Of a stretch of DNA of 19,383 nt, positions 74 through 18,101 are shown in pieces. Position 1 is the stretch's first letter. Each line of letters opens with the position of its first letter. The translations under genes and the position numbers were made by a program. The notes under the pieces were generated by a model that did not search any database, was not told the DNA's origin, and was given only the letters and a program-made list of their open reading frames with translations. The stretch is from a virus: UHGV virus genome UHGV-1344012; one strand, given 5' to 3'.

Positions 74-1387
74 TTAACTTACTGATTTTAATAATCCTCC
101 CGTACTGCTCTCGTGGCTATGGGGCATCAATGGGGCAAAATCTGCCAGCTTCTGATTCAGCATTGCGATCTGCTCTGCGCTGCTGTCAGCCATCCATGCA
201 CCGTAAACATTGAACACCATCTGCGCGCTCGCATGCCCCATCTGACTGGCAATAAAACTCGGGTTTGCACCAGCAGATAATGACCAGCACGCATAGGTAT
301 GTCGTGACTGGTACGCCTTTCTGTGTCTGATCCCCGCGCGCTTTAGTGCAGCTTCCCATGAGTCGCCTACTGAATCGACCCGGTAGATAAATCCGACCTG
401 CTTACTGCGTCTGACCACATGCGGGTTAAAGACGAATGTACACTCATGGTTCACCGAACGACCGTACTCACGTAACTGCACTTCAATGTGATATTGCCTG
501 CCCAGCCTTGTCATTTCAGCCTGATTTTTCAGGATACTGATTGCGGGCTGGATAAGATGCACCACTCGATCTGTACTTGCCTCGGTTTTCGGTAGAGTGA
601 ACTCACCAAGTTTCGTATAATTACGCCTGACGGTAATTGTTCCCGCCTTCAGGTCGATATCTTCCCAGGCCAGGGAGACCAGTTCCCCGTGACGCATTCC
701 TGTGTACACTGCTAATGACCACAGGTTTTTCGTCTGCTGATGCCGGCATGCATCTATCAGGCGAATAAATTCATCACGAGACAGAGGATCTGGTTCTGCC
801 CTGGCTTTTTTCAGAGGTTTAATTCCCTCGAATGGGTTCACCTCTAAGTAACCGTGATCCGCAGCAAACTGAAACATTCCGGCCATTGTCGTCATGTAAT
901 AGTTCACAGTAACAACGCTTCGCCCTTTTGCCGGGGCTTTATTTTTCGTCGGACTCTGATAACCAGTTAGCAAATCTTTCCTAAGATACAGCAATTCCTC
1001 TTTGGTTACTGCTGACACCAGGCGATTACCTCCGATCCTCGGCACCATATTCCTTGCGACAGATTCATAGCGATTGAATGCGTTCGCGCAGATTTCCATC
1101 CGTTTCAGATCCAGCCATTTTTCTTCAAGTTCTTTCACTGTAATGTCTTTTTTACTTACACCAAAAGCCTTGAGGTTAGGGGAGTCAGGAAACTGGGTTG
1201 CATAATCAAAGGTTCCTGTGCGGATGGCAAAACATACTGATGTCCGCAGTTCCCCGGCTACCTTTCTGTTCTTAGCGGTGTCAGGGACACCGAGACTTTC
1301 CCTGACACGCTTACCTTTAAAATTAAACCAGATGCGTAATGTGCCACCGTGGTTTTCGACGCCTGTTGGATATGTGACTTTATCCAT
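74..1387 (-). CDS. int: Tyrosine-type site-specific integrase (phage integrase family)
   Basis: 437-aa ORF with a C-terminal region typical of tyrosine recombinases (...SRHTYACWSL..., downstream H/Y residues) and an N-terminal arm-binding-like region. Strong RBS (GGAGGT) upstream of ATG at 1385-1387; TAA stop at 74-76. Sits next to an excisionase-like gene. Confidence 0.9.
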   Translation of the reverse strand: MDKVTYPTGVENHGGTLRIWFNFKGKRVRESLGVPDTAKNRKVAGELRTSVCFAIRTGTFDYATQFPDSPNLKAFGVSKKDITVKELEEKWLDLKRMEICANAFNRYESVARNMVPRIGGNRLVSAVTKEELLYLRKDLLTGYQSPTKNKAPAKGRSVVTVNYYMTTMAGMFQFAADHGYLEVNPFEGIKPLKKARAEPDPLSRDEFIRLIDACRHQQTKNLWSLAVYTGMRHGELVSLAWEDIDLKAGTITVRRNYTKLGEFTLPKTEASTDRVVHLIQPAISILKNQAEMTRLGRQYHIEVQLREYGRSVNHECTFVFNPHVVRRSKQVGFIYRVDSVGDSWEAALKRAGIRHRKAYQSRHTYACWSLSAGANPSFIASQMGHASAQMVFNVYGAWMADSSAEQIAMLNQKLADFAPLMPHSHESSTGGLLKSVS

Positions 1388-4675: not shown

Positions 4676-4998
4676 GCTGCACCGCCTTCAACGTTACGTA
4701 ACCAGATGCATACCGCGCCATCTTCGGTGTTGTGAATTGAACCGACAAACCAACCTTCACCGGCTGGCGATTCTGGCTGCCAGGCTGAAATATCGTAACC
4801 ATCAACTTCAGGATCGATGTCTTCTTCATCCCGGTAAACTACCGTCCATTCGAGGCCGTTTTTATCCAGCCAGGCGTTGAACTCATCAGGTGAGATAAAT
4901 TCACGACCATCGCAAAATTGCTCATAGACGGGGTGAGTCCANNNNNNNNNNTAGCCGTATTGGTCGCGTTCTACTGGTAATGCCGTAAATTTGCTCAT
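4672..4998 (-). CDS. Hypothetical protein (interrupted by a 10-nt N run)
   Basis: 108-aa ORF in operon context with overlapping stop/start to its neighbours; N run at 4942-4951 lies inside it, so the sequence and frame there are unverified. Confidence 0.45.
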   Translation of the reverse strand: MSKFTALPVERDQYGXXXXWTHPVYEQFCDGREFISPDEFNAWLDKNGLEWTVVYRDEEDIDPEVDGYDISAWQPESPAGEGWFVGSIHNTEDGAVCIWLRNVEGGAA

Positions 4999-7324: not shown

Positions 7325-7486
7325 GGTTTTACCCTCGTTATGGCGGNNNNNNNNNNCTGCCACCGCCGAACTTTCTCCATACACAACAGAGAAGGGCACC
7401 TGCATTTGTCGGCGACTGCAATCGCTATCCTCTTGCCCGGGTGGATTGGGGAATGAGCCCGTCGCCCGGTGATGCCCTTGTCTCTT

Positions 7487-7961: not shown

Positions 7962-8588
7962 TTAGAGTTCGTACTGAACGCCTTTAACAACGCCAATAAT
8001 GAGGCAGTTACCATTGATCGGGATGTTGGGGTAGCGAGGATTTAGTGGCACTAAAAATTTTTGTGGGCCATCAATGACAAGTTTTTTAACAGTCGCTTCA
8101 TTAGTGCCATCAAGACGCGCAACCACAATCTTGCCATGAAGGGGTTCGGCATCTGGATCAACAATAACGGTTGCCCCTTCAGGGATTGTTGGGAGGCCAT
8201 TTGGATTGGTCATTGAATCCCCTTTGACCTCTAAAGCGAACGAGTTATCCCCAATGCGAAGTGATGTTTCAACCCATTTATCGACATCACTGAACAAATC
8301 AGCGGCTTTACATTCCGTGAACTGCCCAGCTTGAACCCATGAAATCACCGGGACACGCCTCATTTTAGTTATGAGGGTGCCTTCAAATTCAGTGCCGTAA
8401 AGAATGTAATCTATTGATGTGTTAAAGAATTTCGCCAGCTTAACCAGCGATTCACCGTTTGGGATATTCACATCCTTTTCCCAATAACCCACCGCTACGT
8501 CACTAACCCCGCAGAACTTACCCAGTTCTTTTTGAGAGGTTCTTGTAACCCTACGTAGGGCTTTAATGCGCTGACCAACCGTTTCCAT
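7962..8588 (-). CDS. cI: CI-type prophage repressor (P22 C2-like; N-terminal HTH, C-terminal S24 LexA-like peptidase)
   Basis: 208-aa ORF with an N-terminal HTH (…QKELGKFCGVSDVAVGYWEK…) and C-terminal S24 catalytic dyad context (…EVKGDSMTNP… Ser; …EATVKKLV… Lys). Divergent from cro across an operator-rich intergenic region. Confidence 0.9.
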   Translation of the reverse strand: METVGQRIKALRRVTRTSQKELGKFCGVSDVAVGYWEKDVNIPNGESLVKLAKFFNTSIDYILYGTEFEGTLITKMRRVPVISWVQAGQFTECKAADLFSDVDKWVETSLRIGDNSFALEVKGDSMTNPNGLPTIPEGATVIVDPDAEPLHGKIVVARLDGTNEATVKKLVIDGPQKFLVPLNPRYPNIPINGNCLIIGVVKGVQYEL

Positions 8589-8687: not shown

Positions 8688-8879
8688 ATGACAACCGACG
8701 AGATTGAACAACATTTCGGCAGCACTGAAAAAGTTGCCGAATTTTTTGGCATCACCAGTGAGGCCGTTTACCAGTGGCGTAACCGCCCCGCTGCTGAAGC
8801 TGCGTATCGAACTGCTGGTGAACTGGAATTTAACCCAGAACGTTATGGCAAGAATACATCGCCAAGCGATCAGAAATAA
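8688..8879 (+). CDS. cro: Cro-like repressor (P22 Cro family)
   Basis: 63-aa ORF immediately right of OR with AGGAGG RBS. Sequence (…IEQHFGSTEKVAEFFGITSEAVYQW…) resembles P22 Cro as recalled. Confidence 0.8.
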   Translation: MTTDEIEQHFGSTEKVAEFFGITSEAVYQWRNRPAAEAAYRTAGELEFNPERYGKNTSPSDQK

Positions 8880-9622: not shown

Positions 9623-9802
9623 ATGCGCGAAGTTAACCGAAGGTTCAAAGACCACAGAGGGATCCCCGTTCGGGTTATCAGGTGGGAGCCAGAGACTCAA
9701 CGAGTTATCTACCTGCGGGATGGATATGACCACGAATGTTTCAGCCCGCTCGAACAATTCAAGCGCAAGTTTACAGAGTTAAAGGACGACCATGAGCACT
9801 AA
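9623..9802 (+). CDS. Small hypothetical protein (59 aa), translationally coupled to the replication gene
   Basis: Hand translation: MREVNRRFKDHRGIPVRVIRWEPETQRVIYLRDGYDHECFSPLEQFKRKFTELKDDHEH. Its TAA overlaps the ATG of the O-like gene (ATGAGCACTAA). It competes with a track ORF (9402-9782) in another frame, so this is uncertain. Confidence 0.35.
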   Translation: MREVNRRFKDHRGIPVRVIRWEPETQRVIYLRDGYDHECFSPLEQFKRKFTELKDDHEH

Positions 9803-10646
9803 ATTAACGGGTTACGTTTGGGATGCTTGTGCCGCTTCTGGCATGAAGCTATCCAGCGTTGCCATCATGGCGCGTCTGGCAGACTTCAGCAGTGATGAAG
9901 GGGTTAGCTGGCCTTCCATCGCTACCATCGCGCGCCAGATTGGTGCTGGTGAGAGCACGGTTCGTACAGCCATATCTCAGCTGGAAAAAGATGGTTGGTT
10001 AACCCGCCAGCAGCGCCGTAAAGGCAACCGAAATGCATCGAACGTTTACCAGCTCAATGTTGCTAAATTGCAGGCTGCTGCCTTTTCTCACCTGTCAGAT
10101 TCTGACGCATCAAAATCTGATGCCTCAAAAACCGACGCGTCAAAATCTGAGGCATCAAAAAACGATGAAAAAGGCGGTTTTCACCCGTCAGAATCTGGGG
10201 GGGATCCGTCAGTAAATACAACTACTGATCCATCAGTTAAAAAACCTTCTTGTCCGGTTGCGCCGCAACCAGACCCTGAAGTGATGATCACCGATAACGC
10301 CATCCTGGTTCTGAATCATCTGAACCTGGTTAGTGGCTCACGATACCAAAAATCAAAAACTTCTCTGGAAAACATCCGTGCTCGTCTGCGTGAAGGTTAC
10401 ACCGTTAGCGACTTACAGCTGGTGATCGACCTTAAGCATGAGCACTGGAACGGCAATGACGTGCAGTACCAGTACATGCGTCCTGAAACGCTCTTCGGTC
10501 CGAAAAAATTTGAAGGTTATCTGCAAAGCGGGATCCGCTGGGACAAGAAGGGGCGGCCACCGCGTGACAGCTGGGGTGAAAAGAAACATGACCCGATGAA
10601 GTTCGGTCCGGTTGATAGCAAGATTCCAGAGGGGTTCAGAGGATGA
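9792..10646 (+). CDS. Replication initiation protein (O-like; N-terminal winged-HTH, low-complexity linker, conserved phage C-terminal domain)
   Basis: 284-aa ORF with an N-terminal HTH-like region and a conserved C-terminus (…LNHLNLVSGSRYQKSKTSLENIRARLREGYT…). The central DASKS-type repeats are encoded by tandem 15-bp DNA repeats that look like origin iterons, as in lambda O. Confidence 0.65.
   Translation: MSTKLTGYVWDACAASGMKLSSVAIMARLADFSSDEGVSWPSIATIARQIGAGESTVRTAISQLEKDGWLTRQQRRKGNRNASNVYQLNVAKLQAAAFSHLSDSDASKSDASKTDASKSEASKNDEKGGFHPSESGGDPSVNTTTDPSVKKPSCPVAPQPDPEVMITDNAILVLNHLNLVSGSRYQKSKTSLENIRARLREGYTVSDLQLVIDLKHEHWNGNDVQYQYMRPETLFGPKKFEGYLQSGIRWDKKGRPPRDSWGEKKHDPMKFGPVDSKIPEGFRG
10101..10160. 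repeat. Four tandem 15-bp direct repeats (candidate origin iterons) inside the O-like gene
   Basis: tctgacgcatcaaaa / tctgatgcctcaaaa / accgacgcgtcaaaa / tctgaggcatcaaaa, each with a short internal dyad (e.g. GACGCGTC), followed by an A-rich stretch (aaaaacgatgaaaaagg). Confidence 0.6.
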
Positions 10647-11196
10647 TGGAAAATAAATACTGCCGTGCACTGGCTGAACTCCGTTCAAAACCAGCACACG
10701 AGTTGAAAGAGGTCGGTGATCAATGGCGCACTCCGGATCTGTTGTTTTGGGGGATCAATGCGATGTTCGGCCCTCTGGTGTTGGACCTTTTTGCCGACGA
10801 CAGCAACGCGAAGTGCCCAGCATGGTACACGGCTGAAGATAATGCCCTGACGCAGGATTGGTCAGAGCGGCTGGCAGAACTCGGTGGTGCCGGGTTTGGC
10901 AACCCGCCTTACAGCCGCTCTCAGTACCACGACAAGCAGGCCGTTACCGGAATGACCCACATCATTAACCACGCTATGGCCATGCGAGAAAAGGGTGGTC
11001 GGTACGTTTTTCTCATTAAGTCTGCGACGAGTGAAACGTGGTGGCCGGTAGAGGCAGATCACGTCACATTCATCCGTGGCCGAATTGGTTTCGATCTTCC
11101 TACATGGTTCGTGCCGAAAGACGAAAAGCAGCAGCCCACCAGCGCATTTTTTGCTGGCGCTATCGTGGTCTTCGACAAAACATGGTGGGGTGAGCG
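10643..11196 (+). CDS. Phage Dam-type DNA N6-adenine methyltransferase (3' end lost in an N run)
   Basis: Motifs typical of the phage N6-adenine methyltransferase family: …QWRTPDLLF…, …NAKCPAWYTAED…, and catalytic NPPY (…GFGNPPYSRS…). ATG overlaps the O-like stop. A 46-nt N run (11197-11242) truncates the visible ORF, so the true end is unknown. Confidence 0.8.
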
Positions 11197-11253
11197 NNNN
11201 NNNNNNNNNNNNNNNNNNNNNNNNNNNNNNNNNNNNNNNNNNCCCAATTTGCC

Positions 11254-11961
11254 GTGGGAAGAACGCAAACTGATGCGGCGCCGGAGCTGGACGCTGAGGT
11301 AGTGCCGGAGAAATCAGAGGCAGAACTGCCATTAACCCAAAAAGCCATTCTGGAAACCAGCGGTGTAGAGGCTTGGGCCTGTGTTGTCGCGGCGGTCGGC
11401 AAGAAAGACGAGTACACCTTCAGCGCGTCAAAGTTTGGTCATACCTGGGCTGCCGACTCTCTGGAAAACCCTGAATTTACCAATGTTTCACCGCTGACGA
11501 TCGACAGAGCGAAAAAGCTGATCAGCGAGAGCATCCTGGTGGGTGTTAATGCATGGCTGGAAACATTGCCCTTTGATAGCGATGACGTGAAACAAGACAT
11601 GTCAGAGCGGTTACGCACGGTTGCCGTTGAGTCTGCGAAAGAATACGGCATTAACCACAGTGAATTCATCGCGACCATGGAAAGCCTGGATAAAGCCAAA
11701 TGGTCAAATATTCGGGGGATCCGCGCCCATGTCCGTGAGACGCAGGAATCAAAGGACAAGGCGTTAAACGAATCGCGCGTTTGGCCTCTTGAGGTTGGAC
11801 TGGTGTTTAACCAGATTGAAGGGGCTGACGCTCTACCTGTTTCGCAGCAGAACAAGCTGAAAGCCAACATCAATCAACTCTGGCTGGAACGAACGGCCAC
11901 CAGCGAAATCATTACTGCCGCTTCTGAACTTGTTCGCAATATGCGGGGAGAGGCCGCGTGA
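11254..11961 (+). CDS. Hypothetical protein (true start unresolved because of the upstream N run)
   Basis: 235-aa ORF from the first in-frame GTG after the gap; the real start may lie within the gap. Its stop overlaps the rusA start. No motif recognised. Confidence 0.5.
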   Translation: MGRTQTDAAPELDAEVVPEKSEAELPLTQKAILETSGVEAWACVVAAVGKKDEYTFSASKFGHTWAADSLENPEFTNVSPLTIDRAKKLISESILVGVNAWLETLPFDSDDVKQDMSERLRTVAVESAKEYGINHSEFIATMESLDKAKWSNIRGIRAHVRETQESKDKALNESRVWPLEVGLVFNQIEGADALPVSQQNKLKANINQLWLERTATSEIITAASELVRNMRGEAA

Positions 11962-13041: not shown

Positions 13042-14033
13042 GAGCTCTGCTTACCCCCGAGATCGCCCATCGTATGGGGATTGTGCTGTTCCGTCCCGGT
13101 ACGGAACTGATGCACCTCTTCATGCGTGGTCGCGTTCTGCTCGAGCCTGAACCAGAAGAAATGGCGTCATTCAGTACCGGGGCTGTTCCGGCAGCCATTC
13201 AGCCGCTAGCTGATGATCCGGTAATGCGTCAGGTCTTCGAGAATGAGAGGGTTATTCAGCGTGCCGGTGGGCTTCCTTCCCTTGAGCAATGGTTGAGTAA
13301 TCGGTTTGAATGCCAGTGGCCACATTCAACGTGGCACGACAAGAACTTCACAACAATGCGGCACCCACCAGGAAGTATTCGCCTGTGCTGGCATTGCGAT
13401 CACACTTTGTCGGGGCAGCATACCGAACAGCTTGCAGGTATAGCGGCCGGAAACCTGGTATCCTGGATTCTGGAAGTCATTCGGCGTGATTCTGGTTTTC
13501 CCGAGTCGCATATCCTGACGCTTCCTGAACTGTGCTGGTGGATGGTCAGAAACGACCTGGCTGATGTTATTCCGGAAAGCGTTGCGCACAAAGGGTTGCG
13601 CCTTCCGGATGAGAAGATCCGTTCTGTCATGAGGGAAAGCGACATAGTGCCTTCCTCGTCAGCAACCAGACTCGTGCAGGAGAAGGCGAAGAAGATCCTC
13701 ACGCTCTCTGTTGATCCGGAGTCGCCAGAGTCTTTTATGCTCAGGCCAAAACGTCGCCGCTGGATAAATGAGACGTACACCCGCTGGGTTAAAACACAAC
13801 CCTGTGAGTGTTGCCGACGGCCAGCAGATGATCCGCACCATATCGTAGGGCACGGTATGGGTGGTACAGCAACAAAAGCCCATGACCTCTTCGTGATCCC
13901 TCTGTGCAGAGAGTGCCACGACGAGTTACACGCCGATGTACCAGCATTCGAGCAGAAGCATGGTACGCAGCTTGAGCTGCTACTGCGTTTTATTGATCGA
14001 GCACTGGCGATCGGCGTAATTGCGACAGCTTAA
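13038..14033 (+). CDS. DUF968 family protein (YdfU-like), Cys/His-rich C-terminus
   Basis: 331-aa ORF starting at GTG 13038 (GTGA overlap with the upstream stop; AGGGGG RBS). C-terminal Cys/His cluster (…CECCRRPADDPHHIVGHG…CRECHDELH…) and position just upstream of Q match YdfU-like proteins as recalled. Confidence 0.6.
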   Translation: MRALLTPEIAHRMGIVLFRPGTELMHLFMRGRVLLEPEPEEMASFSTGAVPAAIQPLADDPVMRQVFENERVIQRAGGLPSLEQWLSNRFECQWPHSTWHDKNFTTMRHPPGSIRLCWHCDHTLSGQHTEQLAGIAAGNLVSWILEVIRRDSGFPESHILTLPELCWWMVRNDLADVIPESVAHKGLRLPDEKIRSVMRESDIVPSSSATRLVQEKAKKILTLSVDPESPESFMLRPKRRRWINETYTRWVKTQPCECCRRPADDPHHIVGHGMGGTATKAHDLFVIPLCRECHDELHADVPAFEQKHGTQLELLLRFIDRALAIGVIATA

Positions 14034-14049
14034 GAAGTATGGAGACCGT

Positions 14050-14880
14050 ATGAATCTGGACAATGTTTTAAAGTTTTTTGCGCCTAAAGGCATGCACATC
14101 TCAGATACCAGCAGAGCGACAGCAAGTGAGCAACTTACTGTGACTGATGTAATGGCTGCACTGGGGATGACTCAGGCTGATGCAGGCATCGGGCTGGCAA
14201 TGTTTCTAGGTAAAGCTGGTATCAGCAGCAAGGACAGGGAGATGTCAATTGCCTGGCTAACGGAGTACGCGAAAGAGCATGCGCCCATGGCTATTCGTAA
14301 AGCATCAGGGAAAAAGTTTCCCCTCTGCATGCGTATCCTTGCCCGGTTTGCCTATAACGATTATTCCTCATCAGCAGCTGATTGTGTGGCATGCCCAAAA
14401 TGTAGTGGTAAAGGGTTGCTTACAACCACTAAAACCGTGACTAAAAGCCATTACACAATGCGATTGCCACAATGGGCAAAAGACCTGAGACAGTCACCAT
14501 CTGACTTTGAGGTAAAGCGAGAAGTAACTGACTCCGAGCAAAGTTTATGTTCGCGATGCCATGGTACCGGAAAGTTAAGTAAGCGATGCCAGTGTGGCGG
14601 AACTGGCAAGACGGTTGACCGTAAAGCGACAGAACTGCAGGGCGTACCAGTTTACAAAGAATGTAAGCGCTGCGAAGGGCGGGGATACAGCAGGCCAAAA
14701 TCATCGGTTGCCTATCGAGGTGTTTTTTCTGAGTTGCCGAGTCTGCCTGACCGAACGTGGCGTTATAGCTGGAAACCATTCTATGAAAGCCTGGTGACCA
14801 AATGTTTCCAGGAGGAGAGTTATTCAAGCTCTCAACTGAATCGGGTGACTAAAAGTGAAGATGTGATAAATATCGCGTAA
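14050..14880 (+). CDS. Late-gene antiterminator Q-like protein (phage 82 Q / QuuQ-type, Zn-finger-like), copy 1
   Basis: Start set at ATG 14050 (MNLDNVLKFF…) with GGAG RBS, by alignment to the paralog at 17269. Cys-rich motifs (CPKCSGKG; CSRCHGTGK…CQCGGTGK; CKRCEGRG). Followed immediately by a consensus-like promoter and intrinsic terminator, the classic Q-pR'-tR' arrangement. Confidence 0.7.
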   Translation: MNLDNVLKFFAPKGMHISDTSRATASEQLTVTDVMAALGMTQADAGIGLAMFLGKAGISSKDREMSIAWLTEYAKEHAPMAIRKASGKKFPLCMRILARFAYNDYSSSAADCVACPKCSGKGLLTTTKTVTKSHYTMRLPQWAKDLRQSPSDFEVKREVTDSEQSLCSRCHGTGKLSKRCQCGGTGKTVDRKATELQGVPVYKECKRCEGRGYSRPKSSVAYRGVFSELPSLPDRTWRYSWKPFYESLVTKCFQEESYSSSQLNRVTKSEDVINIA

Positions 14881-14951: not shown

Positions 14952-14979
14952 TATCGANNNNNNNNNNNNNNNNNGATAA

Positions 14980-17268: not shown

Positions 17269-18101
17269 ATGAAACTTGAAGCTTCACTAAAACACTTTAG
17301 CCCTCAGGGTATGCACATCAGCGACGACGTGAAAGGAACCTCTCCGGACCGCCTTACAGGAACAGATGTAATGGCGGCAATTGGCACCACCANNNNNNNN
17401 NNNNNNNNNNNNNNNNNNNNNNNNNNNNNNNNNNNATCAGCAAAACGGATGAACAGCTCGCAGTTCAGGCGCTGGCGCGATATGCGATGGATGTCGCACC
17501 GAAGAATGTTCGCAAAGCAGCTGGTGGGCAGTTCGGATGGTGCATGCAGATGTTGGCACAATTTGCCTTTGCTGATTATTCACGTTCGGCGGCTACAAGC
17601 GTGACGTGTCACAGCTGCAGTGGTACCGGACGAACAACCCGCGAACAGATTACCCGCAAGGTTTCGTACCCATGGGGTAAAGCTCCATACTGGGCCTGCC
17701 GCTCTCGTGCTGTTCGACCGTCTGACTGGGAGCAGTGGATGGAGGTAACAGAGGTTGTACCGGCGGTCTGTGATGCTTGCGAAGGCAAGGGAACGATCAG
17801 CGCCCGTTGTCGTTGCGGCGGTAAAGGCGAGGTTCTAGACCGCAAGGCCACAAGCGAGCGCGGCGCGCCGGTGTTTAAAACCTGCGAGCGCTGCAGCGGA
17901 AATGGATTTTCTGCGGTGCCGTCTACCGCAGCCTATAAAGTGATACTGAAGCGCGTTCCGGATCTGCACGTCAGAACATGGACTCGCAACTGGAAACCGT
18001 TTCTTGAGGCGCTGGTAAGCATTTGTCAGCAGGAGGAGGGAAACGCCGCAAGAGAATTTCAATCTGCAACCAGTTTAGGCGAAGAAGGTGACGAAATTTA
18101 G
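17269..18101 (+). CDS. Second Q-like antiterminator paralog (interrupted by a 43-nt N run)
   Basis: N-terminus (MKLEASLKHFSPQGMHISD…TGTDVMAAIG) and C-terminal Cys-rich region (CHSCSGTG…; CDACEGKG…CRCGGKG…; CERCSGNG; …RTWTRNWKPF…) align with Q1. Span is not a multiple of 3, so the N run (17393-17435) does not reflect true length. GAGGG RBS before ATG 17269. Confidence 0.65.

Follow-up and report, generated by a model that had tools for sequence, protein, structure and literature searches.

A 15-bp repeat array within a phage replication-initiator-like gene, with the constrained block to its right, as a probable replication origin

The 15-bp tandem repeats embedded in the replication-initiator-like gene at positions 9792-10646 of the viral genome UHGV-1344012 are proposed to be iterons bound by the product of that same gene which, together with the block to their right, would form the replication origin, at approximately 10083-10274. 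A probability of about 70 % is given to this reading. Positions refer to the whole stretch of 19,383 nucleotides that was analysed (the window). An earlier, sequence-only reading of the window had placed initiator-binding iterons, and hence the likely origin, in the linker-coding part of the gene, and this proposal fits the island of synonymous-site constraint, the helix-repeat covariation, the 23-bp array of a sister gene and the SfII-type fusion presented in this work. The element had been taken as 70 bp long, but the constrained element extends over approximately 190 bp and includes a degenerate fifth unit and additional dyad-like sites.

Four tandem 15-bp iterons occupy positions 10101-10160 (TCTGACGCATCAAAA, TCTGATGCCTCAAAA, ACCGACGCGTCAAAA and TCTGAGGCATCAAAA, in this order). 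They were recognised in the sequence, by Tandem Repeats Finder (10101-10160, period 15, 4.0 copies, 77 % matches, with an alternative solution of period 30 at 10104-10165) and by a lag-15 test, in which self-identity from position 10101 reached 35 of 45 positions in comparison to a mean of 22.5 and a maximum of 26 in 300 first-order Markov simulations of the window. The array is confirmed as far beyond chance, and the count of four consecutive repeats given before holds. The same is true of the short dyad ascribed to each repeat: TGA-N4-TCA is present in every unit and unit 3 contains a perfect 10-bp palindrome, TGACGCGTCA. The full unit is a 14-bp hyphenated dyad, TCTGA-N4-TCARA, with one A as the joiner. 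The array is in frame with the 9792-10646 ORF (the distance from 9792 to 10101 is divisible by 3) and the four units encode SDASK, SDASK, TDASK and SEASK, that is, the linker of the DASKS type that had been described.

A degenerate leading (fifth) iteron, TCTCACCTGTCAGAT, was found at 10086-10100 by the dyad scan, with one mismatch to TCTGA-N4-TCARA; its codons TCT, CAC, CTG, TCA and GAT show conservation of 0.81-1.0 among 82 loci. With this unit included the array (4-5 units, 10086-10160) corresponds to codons 99-123 of 284. On the other side, a decayed sixth unit with a short A-rich stretch, AACGATGAAAAAGGC, was recognised in the sequence at 10161-10175, with a conservation of merely 0.5-0.8. 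The A-rich stretch reported to follow the repeats is indeed present (10155-10176, 55 % A), but it is short and only moderately conserved, and the conserved AT-rich part is a different segment, 10205-10250, with 35 % GC. The dyad scan returned 22 matches in the window, 8 of which, all three perfect ones included, fall within 240 bp at this locus.

The gene, on the plus strand, was defined by the ORF list and by Pfam and PHROGs matches. It encodes a protein of 284 aa composed of an N-terminal winged-helix DNA-binding domain of the HTH_36 type (aa 23-70, E=1.9e-9; coding part 9792-10085), a repeat-bearing linker and a C-terminal, DnaD-like Phg_2220_C domain (aa 173-245, E=4.7e-23; coding part 10275-10646), both domains being assigned by Pfam. 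The scores for PF09524 (Phg_2220_C; 81.5 bits, cut-off 27) and TIGR02220 (70.3 bits, cut-off 66.65) exceed the curated thresholds. Weak Pfam matches to DnaD_N and RP-C were also obtained, and the PHROGs matches were to 'primosomal protein' and 'replication initiation' families. The recognition helix of the N-domain putatively includes S55-T56-V57-R58-T59, and the Phg_2220_C domain is presumed to recruit host replication proteins. The AlphaFold2 model, based on a shallow alignment, had a mean pLDDT of 49 with the N-domain unresolved, too poor for conclusions on the fold or dimerisation of that domain; the linker was predicted as coil (pLDDT 30-38).

The description of the gene as 'O-like' holds for its layout, which resembles that of lambda, but not for its sequence. 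Membership in the lambda O family (Phage_rep_O, PF04492) was ruled out by Pfam (no PF04492 match in the 284-aa protein at E<=0.01), by BLASTP against lambda O (E=0.62) and by hhalign (probability 0.4 %). A lambda-O-type, P-binding C-domain followed by a P-type loader gene is absent, with Phg_2220_C in its position and a Dam gene next.

That the repeats matter as DNA is indicated by codon usage in related genes. Relatives were gathered productively by scanning genome contigs and not by protein search with the N-domain; among the results of the latter, fragments with truncations or frameshifts prevailed and distant relatives were missing. With approximately 80 Enterobacterales prophages as the comparison set, an island of synonymous-site constraint was delimited at codons 98-161 (10083-10274, the proposed whole origin region). 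In 36 loci of the same architecture the median major-codon frequency, a simple statistic that is not phylogeny-aware, was 0.99 in the island as against 0.55 in codons 4-97 and 0.59 in codons 162-284 (Mann-Whitney p=2e-19, island versus flanks); the per-column table was based on 82 loci. In the relatives both protein domains show saturation at synonymous sites, and at the 31 conserved four-fold sites of the N-domain the major allele averages 0.48 and does not exceed 0.72.

Within the units themselves (416 units from 82 loci) the serine of codon 1 is encoded by TCT in 87 % of cases and that of codon 4 by TCA in 86 %, and lysine by AAA 291 times versus AAG once, whereas in the N-domain that these genes encode 11 % of serine codons are TCA and 9 % are TCT, and the AAA:AAG ratio is 186:142. 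The middle codon of the unit varies (Ala, Pro, Thr, Gly, Ser or Arg) and has C as its second base in 85 % of the units, and the consensus, TGACGCGTCA, reads as a palindrome. Distant relatives carry other peptide repeats (SERSD, SEHSD, SKSVP or a 20-residue super-repeat) with the DNA core and the period of 15 kept. By these comparisons the repeats are constrained as DNA independently of the peptide. Because tandem units evolve in concert, conservation inside an array looks higher than it is, but this effect does not account for conservation from one genus to another.

The repeats also vary together with the putative recognition helix. In 71 loci with the helix residues STV-R (330 units) position 6 of the unit is C or T, position 9 is G or A and position 13 is A, and in 6 loci with STV-I (27 units) the respective positions are A (0.89), T (0.70) and G (0.89). 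Replacement of R by I is accompanied by a joint switch at the symmetric positions 6 and 9, from TGAC..GTCA to TGAA..TTCA, by which the dyad is kept; the covariation amounts to approximately 3-4 independent lineages. The helix residue concerned is R58, and its dyad-preserving covariation gives only indirect support to the idea that the N-domain may bind each repeat as a dimer.

The comparison of repeat number across relatives, which the sequence-only reading had called for, gave 2-9 units per array, and proteins more than 95 % identical differ in having 2, 3 or 4 units. Of the 116 arrays in viral contigs that could be assessed, 115 share the reading frame of the N-domain ORF. Stand-alone arrays outside the gene were also considered: the single exception is a truncated prophage. 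A role at the DNA level is neither supported nor refuted by this count. A sister gene in phage 118970_sal3, with another N-domain and the same C-domain, has a 23-bp direct repeat that occurs at least four times in the corresponding linker; with such a period the copies are out of frame and cannot be a peptide repeat. SfII-type proteins combine the N-domain and array described here with a true C-terminal domain of lambda O (E=7e-26), so the array occupies the place of the annotated iterons of lambda. This fits the lambda-like layout claimed for the gene. This type of initiator is common and was found in the Shigella serotype-converting phages SfII and SfIV, in a prophage of Nissle 1917 and in many prophages of Enterobacter, Klebsiella, Citrobacter, Yersinia and Providencia. 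A plasmid mini-replicon built on the gene was also looked for, and the matches, for the most part prophages carried by large replicons or excised circles of phage DNA, were uninformative.

To the right of the iterons, a dyad-like site, TTTCACCCGTCAGA, identified by the dyad scan at 10179-10192, is near-invariant across loci and sits in an invariant block. The segment 10178-10197 forms a 20-nt inverted repeat with 10096-10115, at the first iteron (85 % complementary). Two 24-bp direct repeats, GATCCGTCAGTAAATACAACTACT and GATCCATCAGTTAAAAAACCTTCT, follow at 10203-10250 (consensus; lag-24 signal at 10202), and a further dyad-like site from the dyad scan, ACTGATCCATCAGT, lies within them at 10224-10237. 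Both 24-mers begin with GATC (10203 and 10227), and the Asp codon in these sites is GAT in 82 of 82 and 71 of 71 sequences versus a GAC:GAT background of 158:143. GATC is not enriched in the window as a whole (79 sites, 76 expected); only the conservation of these two is notable. The conserved segment 10205-10250 has a GC content of 0.348, compared with 51-53 % in the rest of the gene. As the most AT-rich segment of the gene, 10203-10250 is a candidate unwinding element, although it is only moderately AT-rich and approximately 45 bp, a G7 run included, separate it from the last good iteron. The block closes with a palindrome, GTCCGGTTGCG-C-CGCAACCAGAC, found as an inverted pair at 10252-10274, at the junction where N- and C-modules are exchanged: the BLAST module boundaries (query 447-483) correspond to 10238-10274 of the window and the palindrome recurs in the sister gene of phage 118970_sal3.

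Immediately downstream, on the plus strand at 10643-11302, lies the gene of a phage Dam (N6-adenine) methyltransferase (PF05869, E=2.5e-39), broken in the window by a run of N at 11197-11242. At least 33 of 80 related loci have a Dam homologue immediately behind the initiator-like gene, and the conserved GATC pair within the proposed origin block may be a substrate of the enzyme. From the integrase gene through the lysis genes no other replication gene, helicase or loader was found. The promoter scan and inspection recognised no sigma-70 promoter in the region, inspection of the sequence revealed no DnaA box and Rfam gave no match there. In the searchable literature neither binding or replication experiments on any family member nor an origin position for these prophages was found, and the SfIV genome paper does not discuss the origin.

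From these features we infer binding, unwinding, recruitment of host factors and origin activity. The origin would lie within the coding sequence of the flexible interdomain linker, its right-hand block consisting of the dyad-like site, the G7 run, the two GATC-headed AT-rich 24-mers and the junction palindrome. Transcription from the early rightward promoter would provide the initiator, whose N-domains would occupy the array, each 14-bp dyad probably being bound by a dimer of the winged-helix domain. Since the period is 15 bp, neighbouring dimers would be placed on roughly opposite faces of the helix. The filled array would then destabilise the adjoining segment of 35 % GC and the Phg_2220_C/DnaD-like C-domain would recruit the host helicase machinery, which is proposed because the early region, integrase through lysis genes, contains no helicase or loader gene. 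A bolder and rather doubtful version is that this is a compact origin of an undescribed kind: 14-bp dyads at a period of 15 bp (approximately 1.4 turns) would alternate between helix faces, methylation of the GATC 24-mers by the syntenic Dam of the phage would license or time initiation, and a single initiator would recruit host DnaB/DnaC, or the primosome, directly through interchangeable C-domains (Phg_2220_C or lambda-O type) with no phage loader.

Alternatively, the repeats could be sites at which the protein regulates its own gene or copy number by titration, handcuffing or a transcription roadblock, with the true origin elsewhere. Iterons of plasmids and of lambda also titrate and inhibit (PMC3349717), the computed evidence does not separate a binding site from an origin, and the AT-richness is moderate (46 bp at 35 % GC). 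However, no second repeat array and no non-coding element of similar conservation was found in the neighbourhood of the gene, the position within the gene is that of the origin of lambda, and the constraint runs approximately 110 bp past the sites into AT-rich repeats and a palindrome, none of which an operator would need. This explanation is considered unlikely.

Slightly less probable still is that the right-hand block (approximately 10177-10274) has been conserved mainly as a recombination junction at which lambdoid initiator modules are shuffled, and not as a part of the origin. The module boundaries at 10238-10274 agree with it, and both the palindrome and the peptide 'PSCPVA.QPD' occur also in genes with another N-domain or another C-domain. 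It leaves unexplained, however, the fixed codons of the 15-bp array, the GATC-headed 24-mers and the AT-richness, and the block is invariant in lineages with saturated flanks. Since lambda-type origins are themselves module junctions, this role is compatible with an origin at 10083-10274 and could account for part of the conservation of the right-hand block.

Constraint imposed by an overlapping feature, either an RNA structure or a small ORF (10033-10215 on the plus strand or 10063-10221 on the minus strand), is very improbable. An RNA fold of unusual stability is predicted for 10080-10280 (-64.6 kcal/mol, z=-4.87) and the two alternative frames are largely open in relatives (median open fractions 0.64-0.81), but both properties follow from palindromic repeats. 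The dyad-preserving change of C..G to A..T would suit base pairing too, yet individual units of the window type cannot form hairpins because TCTGA and TCAAA, which are their outer halves, lack complementarity. The number of copies varies freely, the 23-bp sister array changes frame from copy to copy, the region shows neither an Rfam match nor a promoter or terminator consensus for a separate transcript, and the alternative-frame peptides have poor starts (TTG for the minus-strand ORF). The notion that (SDASK)n is a mere low-complexity, slippage-prone peptide linker with no function as DNA can be practically dismissed: a period that is a multiple of 3, units in frame, 2 to 9 copies among relatives, a predicted coil and the third-codon location of two of the variable positions in the window's own four units speak for it, but the Ser and Lys codons hardly vary at their synonymous positions from genus to genus, in contrast to the saturation of the flanking domains, the central amino acid is free and its DNA is not, the DNA core stays where the peptide repeats of distant relatives diverge, and the 23-bp repeats of the sister module are out of frame.

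An origin narrowed to approximately 190 bp offers a target for mini-replicons and for interference with prophage induction, and its location helps to interpret marker-frequency data. 'Silent' recoding or codon optimisation of this part of the gene would probably destroy the phage. More generally, islands of synonymous constraint combined with covariation of repeat and helix can locate intragenic origins without experiments. The question is also raised how host helicase is loaded by a single initiator with swappable C-domains and no phage loader.

Among the closest known systems, ori-lambda in gene O (including the variants with six iterons in Stx phages) has these features in common with the proposed origin: direct repeats joined by A, each a hyphenated inverted repeat, positioned mid-gene in the linker between a DNA-binding N-domain and a recruiting C-domain, with a segment to their right that is AT-rich in lambda and moderately so here, and a copy number that differs among relatives. 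In both, the N-domain is passed on together with its iterons as a single module (PMC6022878, PMC7466680). The iterons of lambda, according to the annotation, lie at approximately codons 117-145 of 299, compared with codons 99-123 of 284 here, and are 18 bp long and spaced 20-24 bp, whereas those of the window are 14 bp long with a strict period of 15 bp. The N-domain in lambda is Phage_rep_O and here HTH_36, with no detectable similarity; in contrast to lambda, the gene is not followed by a P-type or DnaC-type loader gene and the C-domain is Phg_2220_C. Two GATC-headed 24-mers make up the AT-rich part here, and its AT content is below that of the 38-39 bp region of lambda. DNA homology to ori-lambda, suggested by the 'CGTCAGA...TCTGG' appearance, was rejected (local alignment score 18, shuffle mean 17.7).

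The SPP1 G38P/oriL system and the lactococcal rep genes of the TP901-1/r1t type are examples of replisome-organiser initiators that have DnaD-like or Phg_2220_C C-domains and an origin located within the initiator gene itself. In the Francisella phage KIRK an origin was predicted in silico inside a Phg_2220_C gene, where KDNNK is repeated three times over DNA repeats (PMC7924643). Organisers of the KIRK type have in common with the window the Phg_2220_C C-domain and the coincidence of a short internal peptide repeat with DNA repeats. They differ in that replisome-organiser phages encode an adjacent helicase and/or loader (in KIRK a G39P-like gene), absent here, and in that their N-domain and repeat sequence are unrelated to those described in this work.

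Each of the 11- and 12-mers bound by RctB in chromosome II of Vibrio cholerae contains GATC, whose methylation is needed for binding, and the P1 plasmid origin requires methylated DNA (PMC2865523). As in the origins of iteron plasmids and RctB, the putative initiator-binding array in the window adjoins a candidate unwinding region and GATC is conserved in the elements, proposed in the case of the window, of the origin, here as two invariant GATC-headed repeats near a phage Dam gene. Unlike in those origins, the iterons lie within coding sequence and GATC is found in the flanking 24-mers, not in the 15-bp units. Classical plasmid iterons (approximately 17-22 bp, spaced by the helical repeat, with an AT-rich region and a DnaA box or IHF site) are not matched by 14-bp units at a period of 15. 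To judge from the sequence, the array would be iteron-like in its working and an atypical variant in its geometry, and the whole most likely represents a lambda-style layout carried by another protein family.

The initiator-like gene (9792-10646, plus strand) is embedded in the early region of a lambdoid prophage with the order integrase (74-1387, minus strand), exonuclease-like gene, Ead/Ea22 gene, DUF2303 gene, cI (7962-8588, minus strand), cro (8688-8879), CII/YmfL-like regulator, a small DUF4222 gene (9623-9802), the initiator gene itself and a Dam methyltransferase gene (10643-11302), followed in turn by RusA, antirepressor, DUF968 and Q genes and, after Q, by holins and endolysin. No helicase or helicase-loader gene was found among the genes of the window. 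The DUF4222 ORF overlaps the initiator start codon by 11 nt. It is found at this position in relatives from E. coli, Klebsiella and Rahnella as well, so it may belong to the replication module as an accessory. Five runs of masked bases (N) are present (4942-4951, 7347-7356, 11197-11242, 14958-14974 and 17393-17435), of which one interrupts the Dam gene, so that it is uncertain where exactly this gene ends and where the next ORF (11254-11961, with a partial DNA-methyltransferase PHROG match) begins. There are two antiterminator-Q-family genes (14020-14880 and 17487-18101), and the position of the second after the holin/endolysin cassette suggests either the remnant of a neighbouring prophage or a late region of mosaic make-up.

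The 284-aa initiator contains an HTH_36 winged-helix domain (aa 23-70), where weak DnaD_N and RP-C matches were also obtained, and a Phg_2220_C domain (aa 173-245), and falls into the PHROGs classes 'primosomal protein' and 'replication initiation protein'. The protein has no similarity to lambda O; the gene, called O-like in the sequence-only reading, resembles O in layout only.

Tandem Repeats Finder located four copies of period 15 at 10101-10160, and the lag-15 self-identity is 35/45 (300 Markov simulations: mean 22.5, maximum 26). All units keep the reading frame, encode SDASK, SDASK, TDASK and SEASK, and each constitutes a hyphenated dyad. The window was scanned for TCTGA-N4-TCARA with up to 2 mismatches; 8 of the 22 matches lay within 10086-10323 and all three perfect ones inside the array, and the scan also indicated a degenerate fifth unit at 10086-10100 and further dyad-like sites at 10179-10192 and 10224-10237. 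The four consecutive 15-bp repeats with dyads noticed in the sequence-only reading are confirmed.

Relatives comprised 13 annotated ones and 80 loci, one genome per species across Enterobacterales, the latter with N-domains 57-100 % identical to that of the window protein. In the comparison of repeat number proposed earlier, every relative with the window's N-domain carried the array, in 2 to 9 units. Codons were counted in 416 units of 82 distinct loci: the first Ser codon was TCT in 87 % and the second TCA in 86 % of Ser cases, Lys was encoded by AAA 291 times and by AAG once, and the middle codon, specifying Ala, Pro, Thr, Gly, Ser or Arg, had C as its second base in 85 % of units. Synonymous sites in the N-domain of the same genes were saturated (31 conserved four-fold sites, major allele mean 0.48, maximum 0.72), with AAA:AAG of 186:142 and only 11 % TCA and 9 % TCT among Ser codons. 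Distant relatives have other peptide repeats (SERSD, SEHSD, SKSVP, a 20-residue super-repeat) and retain the DNA core TCA-RAW-TCT-GR at period 15. Fixed DNA with a changing peptide is the opposite of what a mere low-complexity linker should display, and the codon data contradict the view that the repeats are nothing but a peptide linker, which can practically be dismissed.

In Tatumella saanichensis (L089:1501-2613) the array has grown to a super-repeat of 60 bp that is built from four sub-units, and GLKTGPSEPQGPKSGLSESE is encoded several times. The 15,977-bp circular 'plasmid' record NZ_CP148542.1 (L095) consists only of a lambdoid early/late fragment with cI, cro, a frameshifted initiator relative (units GTTGACCCGTCAAAT at period 15), DnaC-like ATPase, RusA, Q and lysis genes. 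Either a lambda-dv-like replicon or an artefact of assembly could explain this record.

The repeats also vary with the protein. In 71 loci the sequence of the putative recognition helix is STVRT, and the 330 units of these loci show C/T, G/A and A at positions 6, 9 and 13, respectively. In 6 loci it is STVIT, and their 27 units show A (0.89), T (0.70) and G (0.89) at the three positions. Since positions 6 and 9 correspond to each other in the dyad, TGAC..GTCA becomes TGAA..TTCA with the helix change; in one subfamily the unit is a perfect 14-bp palindrome, TCTGAACGTTCAGA. This covariation, drawn from few independent lineages, fits recognition by a symmetric dimer.

BLAST showed that N-domain, array and right block, together the initial 483 nt of the gene, move as a single module to which various C-terminal halves are attached; the joint lies at 10238-10274. 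In SfII-type phages (L005:2501-3442 in Shigella phage SfII; similarly L004, L006-L009 and L013) the module is fused to a C-terminal half homologous to the lambda O C-terminal domain (BLASTP E=7e-26), which puts the array at the same place as lambda's annotated iterons and upholds the lambda-like placement claimed initially. No P-like loader gene follows the initiator in the stretch examined of these loci, the next genes being PerC, Dam and RusA. Salmonella phage 118970_sal3 (KU927493.2) shares the window's C-domain but has an unrelated N-domain in front of it. The equivalent linker (L010:1314-1448) contains a 23-bp direct repeat in four or more copies, perhaps five or six, and the frame shifts from each copy to the next. 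No peptide repeat can have a period of 23, hence repeats at the DNA level do occur in the linkers of such genes; those of 118970_sal3 are probably the iterons of a second specificity type.

In the codon alignment the commonest codon was used by a fraction of about 0.3-0.7 of the sequences before codon 98, by 0.85-1.0 from there on and by fewer again after codon 161. Among 36 loci of the same domain architecture the median major-codon frequency was 0.55 for codons 4-97 (9801-10082), 0.99 for codons 98-161 (10083-10274) and 0.59 for codons 162-284 (10275-10643; island versus both flanks combined, Mann-Whitney p=2e-19). The element therefore extends over approximately 190 bp and not the 70 bp assumed before. 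Right of the array lies an almost invariant block, TTTT(C/G)ACCCGTCAGAATCTGG.GGGGATCCGTCAGTAAAT..., and two GATC-headed 24-bp direct repeats (10203-10226 and 10227-10250), nearly invariant across genera, make up the part of the gene that is richest in AT (35 % GC). A palindrome at 10252-10274 completes the right-hand part of the element. The GATC-forming Asp codons are GAT in 82/82 and 71/71 sequences (background GAC:GAT 158:143), and a Dam homologue is encoded directly downstream of the initiator in at least 33 of the 80 loci. Database protein P0213 has a third copy of the 24-bp repeat (DPSVNTTT duplication). The island also includes the homopolymer runs A6 (10157-10162), read as A AAA AAC in a slippery-heptamer-like context, and G7 (10197-10203). 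A frameshift at these runs or just upstream is seen in the database proteins P0003 (ending ...ESGGIRQ) and P0016/P0029/P0030 (140 aa, with the repeats read in the +1 frame), which could reflect hot spots of mutation, errors of sequencing or programmed shifts.

An overlapping ORF or RNA structure would account for synonymous constraint, and the RNA of the region folds stably (z=-4.87), but this stability is a consequence of the palindromic units, single window-type units cannot form hairpins, the unit copy number varies freely and an Rfam and promoter scan of the region found nothing, making such an origin of the constraint very unlikely. That the repeats serve only as binding sites for autoregulation or copy control is somewhat less improbable, though still unlikely. 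The right-hand block may be conserved partly as a recombination junction, since the BLAST module boundaries fall at 10238-10274 and a 23-bp palindrome, GTCCGGTTGCG-C-CGCAACCAGAC (10252-10274), sits at the exact exchange junction and is shared by the sister gene of 118970_sal3 with its different N-domain (L010:1515-1537).

The arrangement is of the known 'origin inside the initiator gene' type, and the candidate origin proposed here is well supported by comparative evidence. The searchable literature gives no origin for SfII/SfIV-type phages and only one in-silico proposal, for Francisella phage KIRK, of an origin inside a Phg_2220_C gene. By analogy with lambda we infer that N-domain dimers would fill the dyads, the nucleoprotein complex would melt the adjoining AT-rich 24-mers and the C-domain would bring in host helicase-loading functions.

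In lambda, gene O contains the whole arrangement: four 18-bp hyphenated inverted repeats, linked through A residues and each occupied by a dimer of O, adjoin a 38-39-bp AT-rich region (PMC6022878, PMC7466680). The proposed mechanism copies this scheme. DNA kinship with ori-lambda was rejected: CGTCAGAATCTGG (10184-10197) resembles CGTCAGAGAATTCTGG (lambda 39162-39185, L094:563-586), located just right of lambda's AT-rich region, but the local alignment was no better than shuffled. In contrast to lambda, the sites are 14 bp long at a strict 15-bp period, so that adjacent dimers would sit on nearly opposite helix faces, the phage has no loader of its own, and the AT-rich part consists of GATC-headed repeats near a phage Dam gene. 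Dam-dependent origins are known from the P1 plasmid and, with the RctB sites, from chromosome II of V. cholerae (PMC2865523); methylation may matter in the present origin candidate too.
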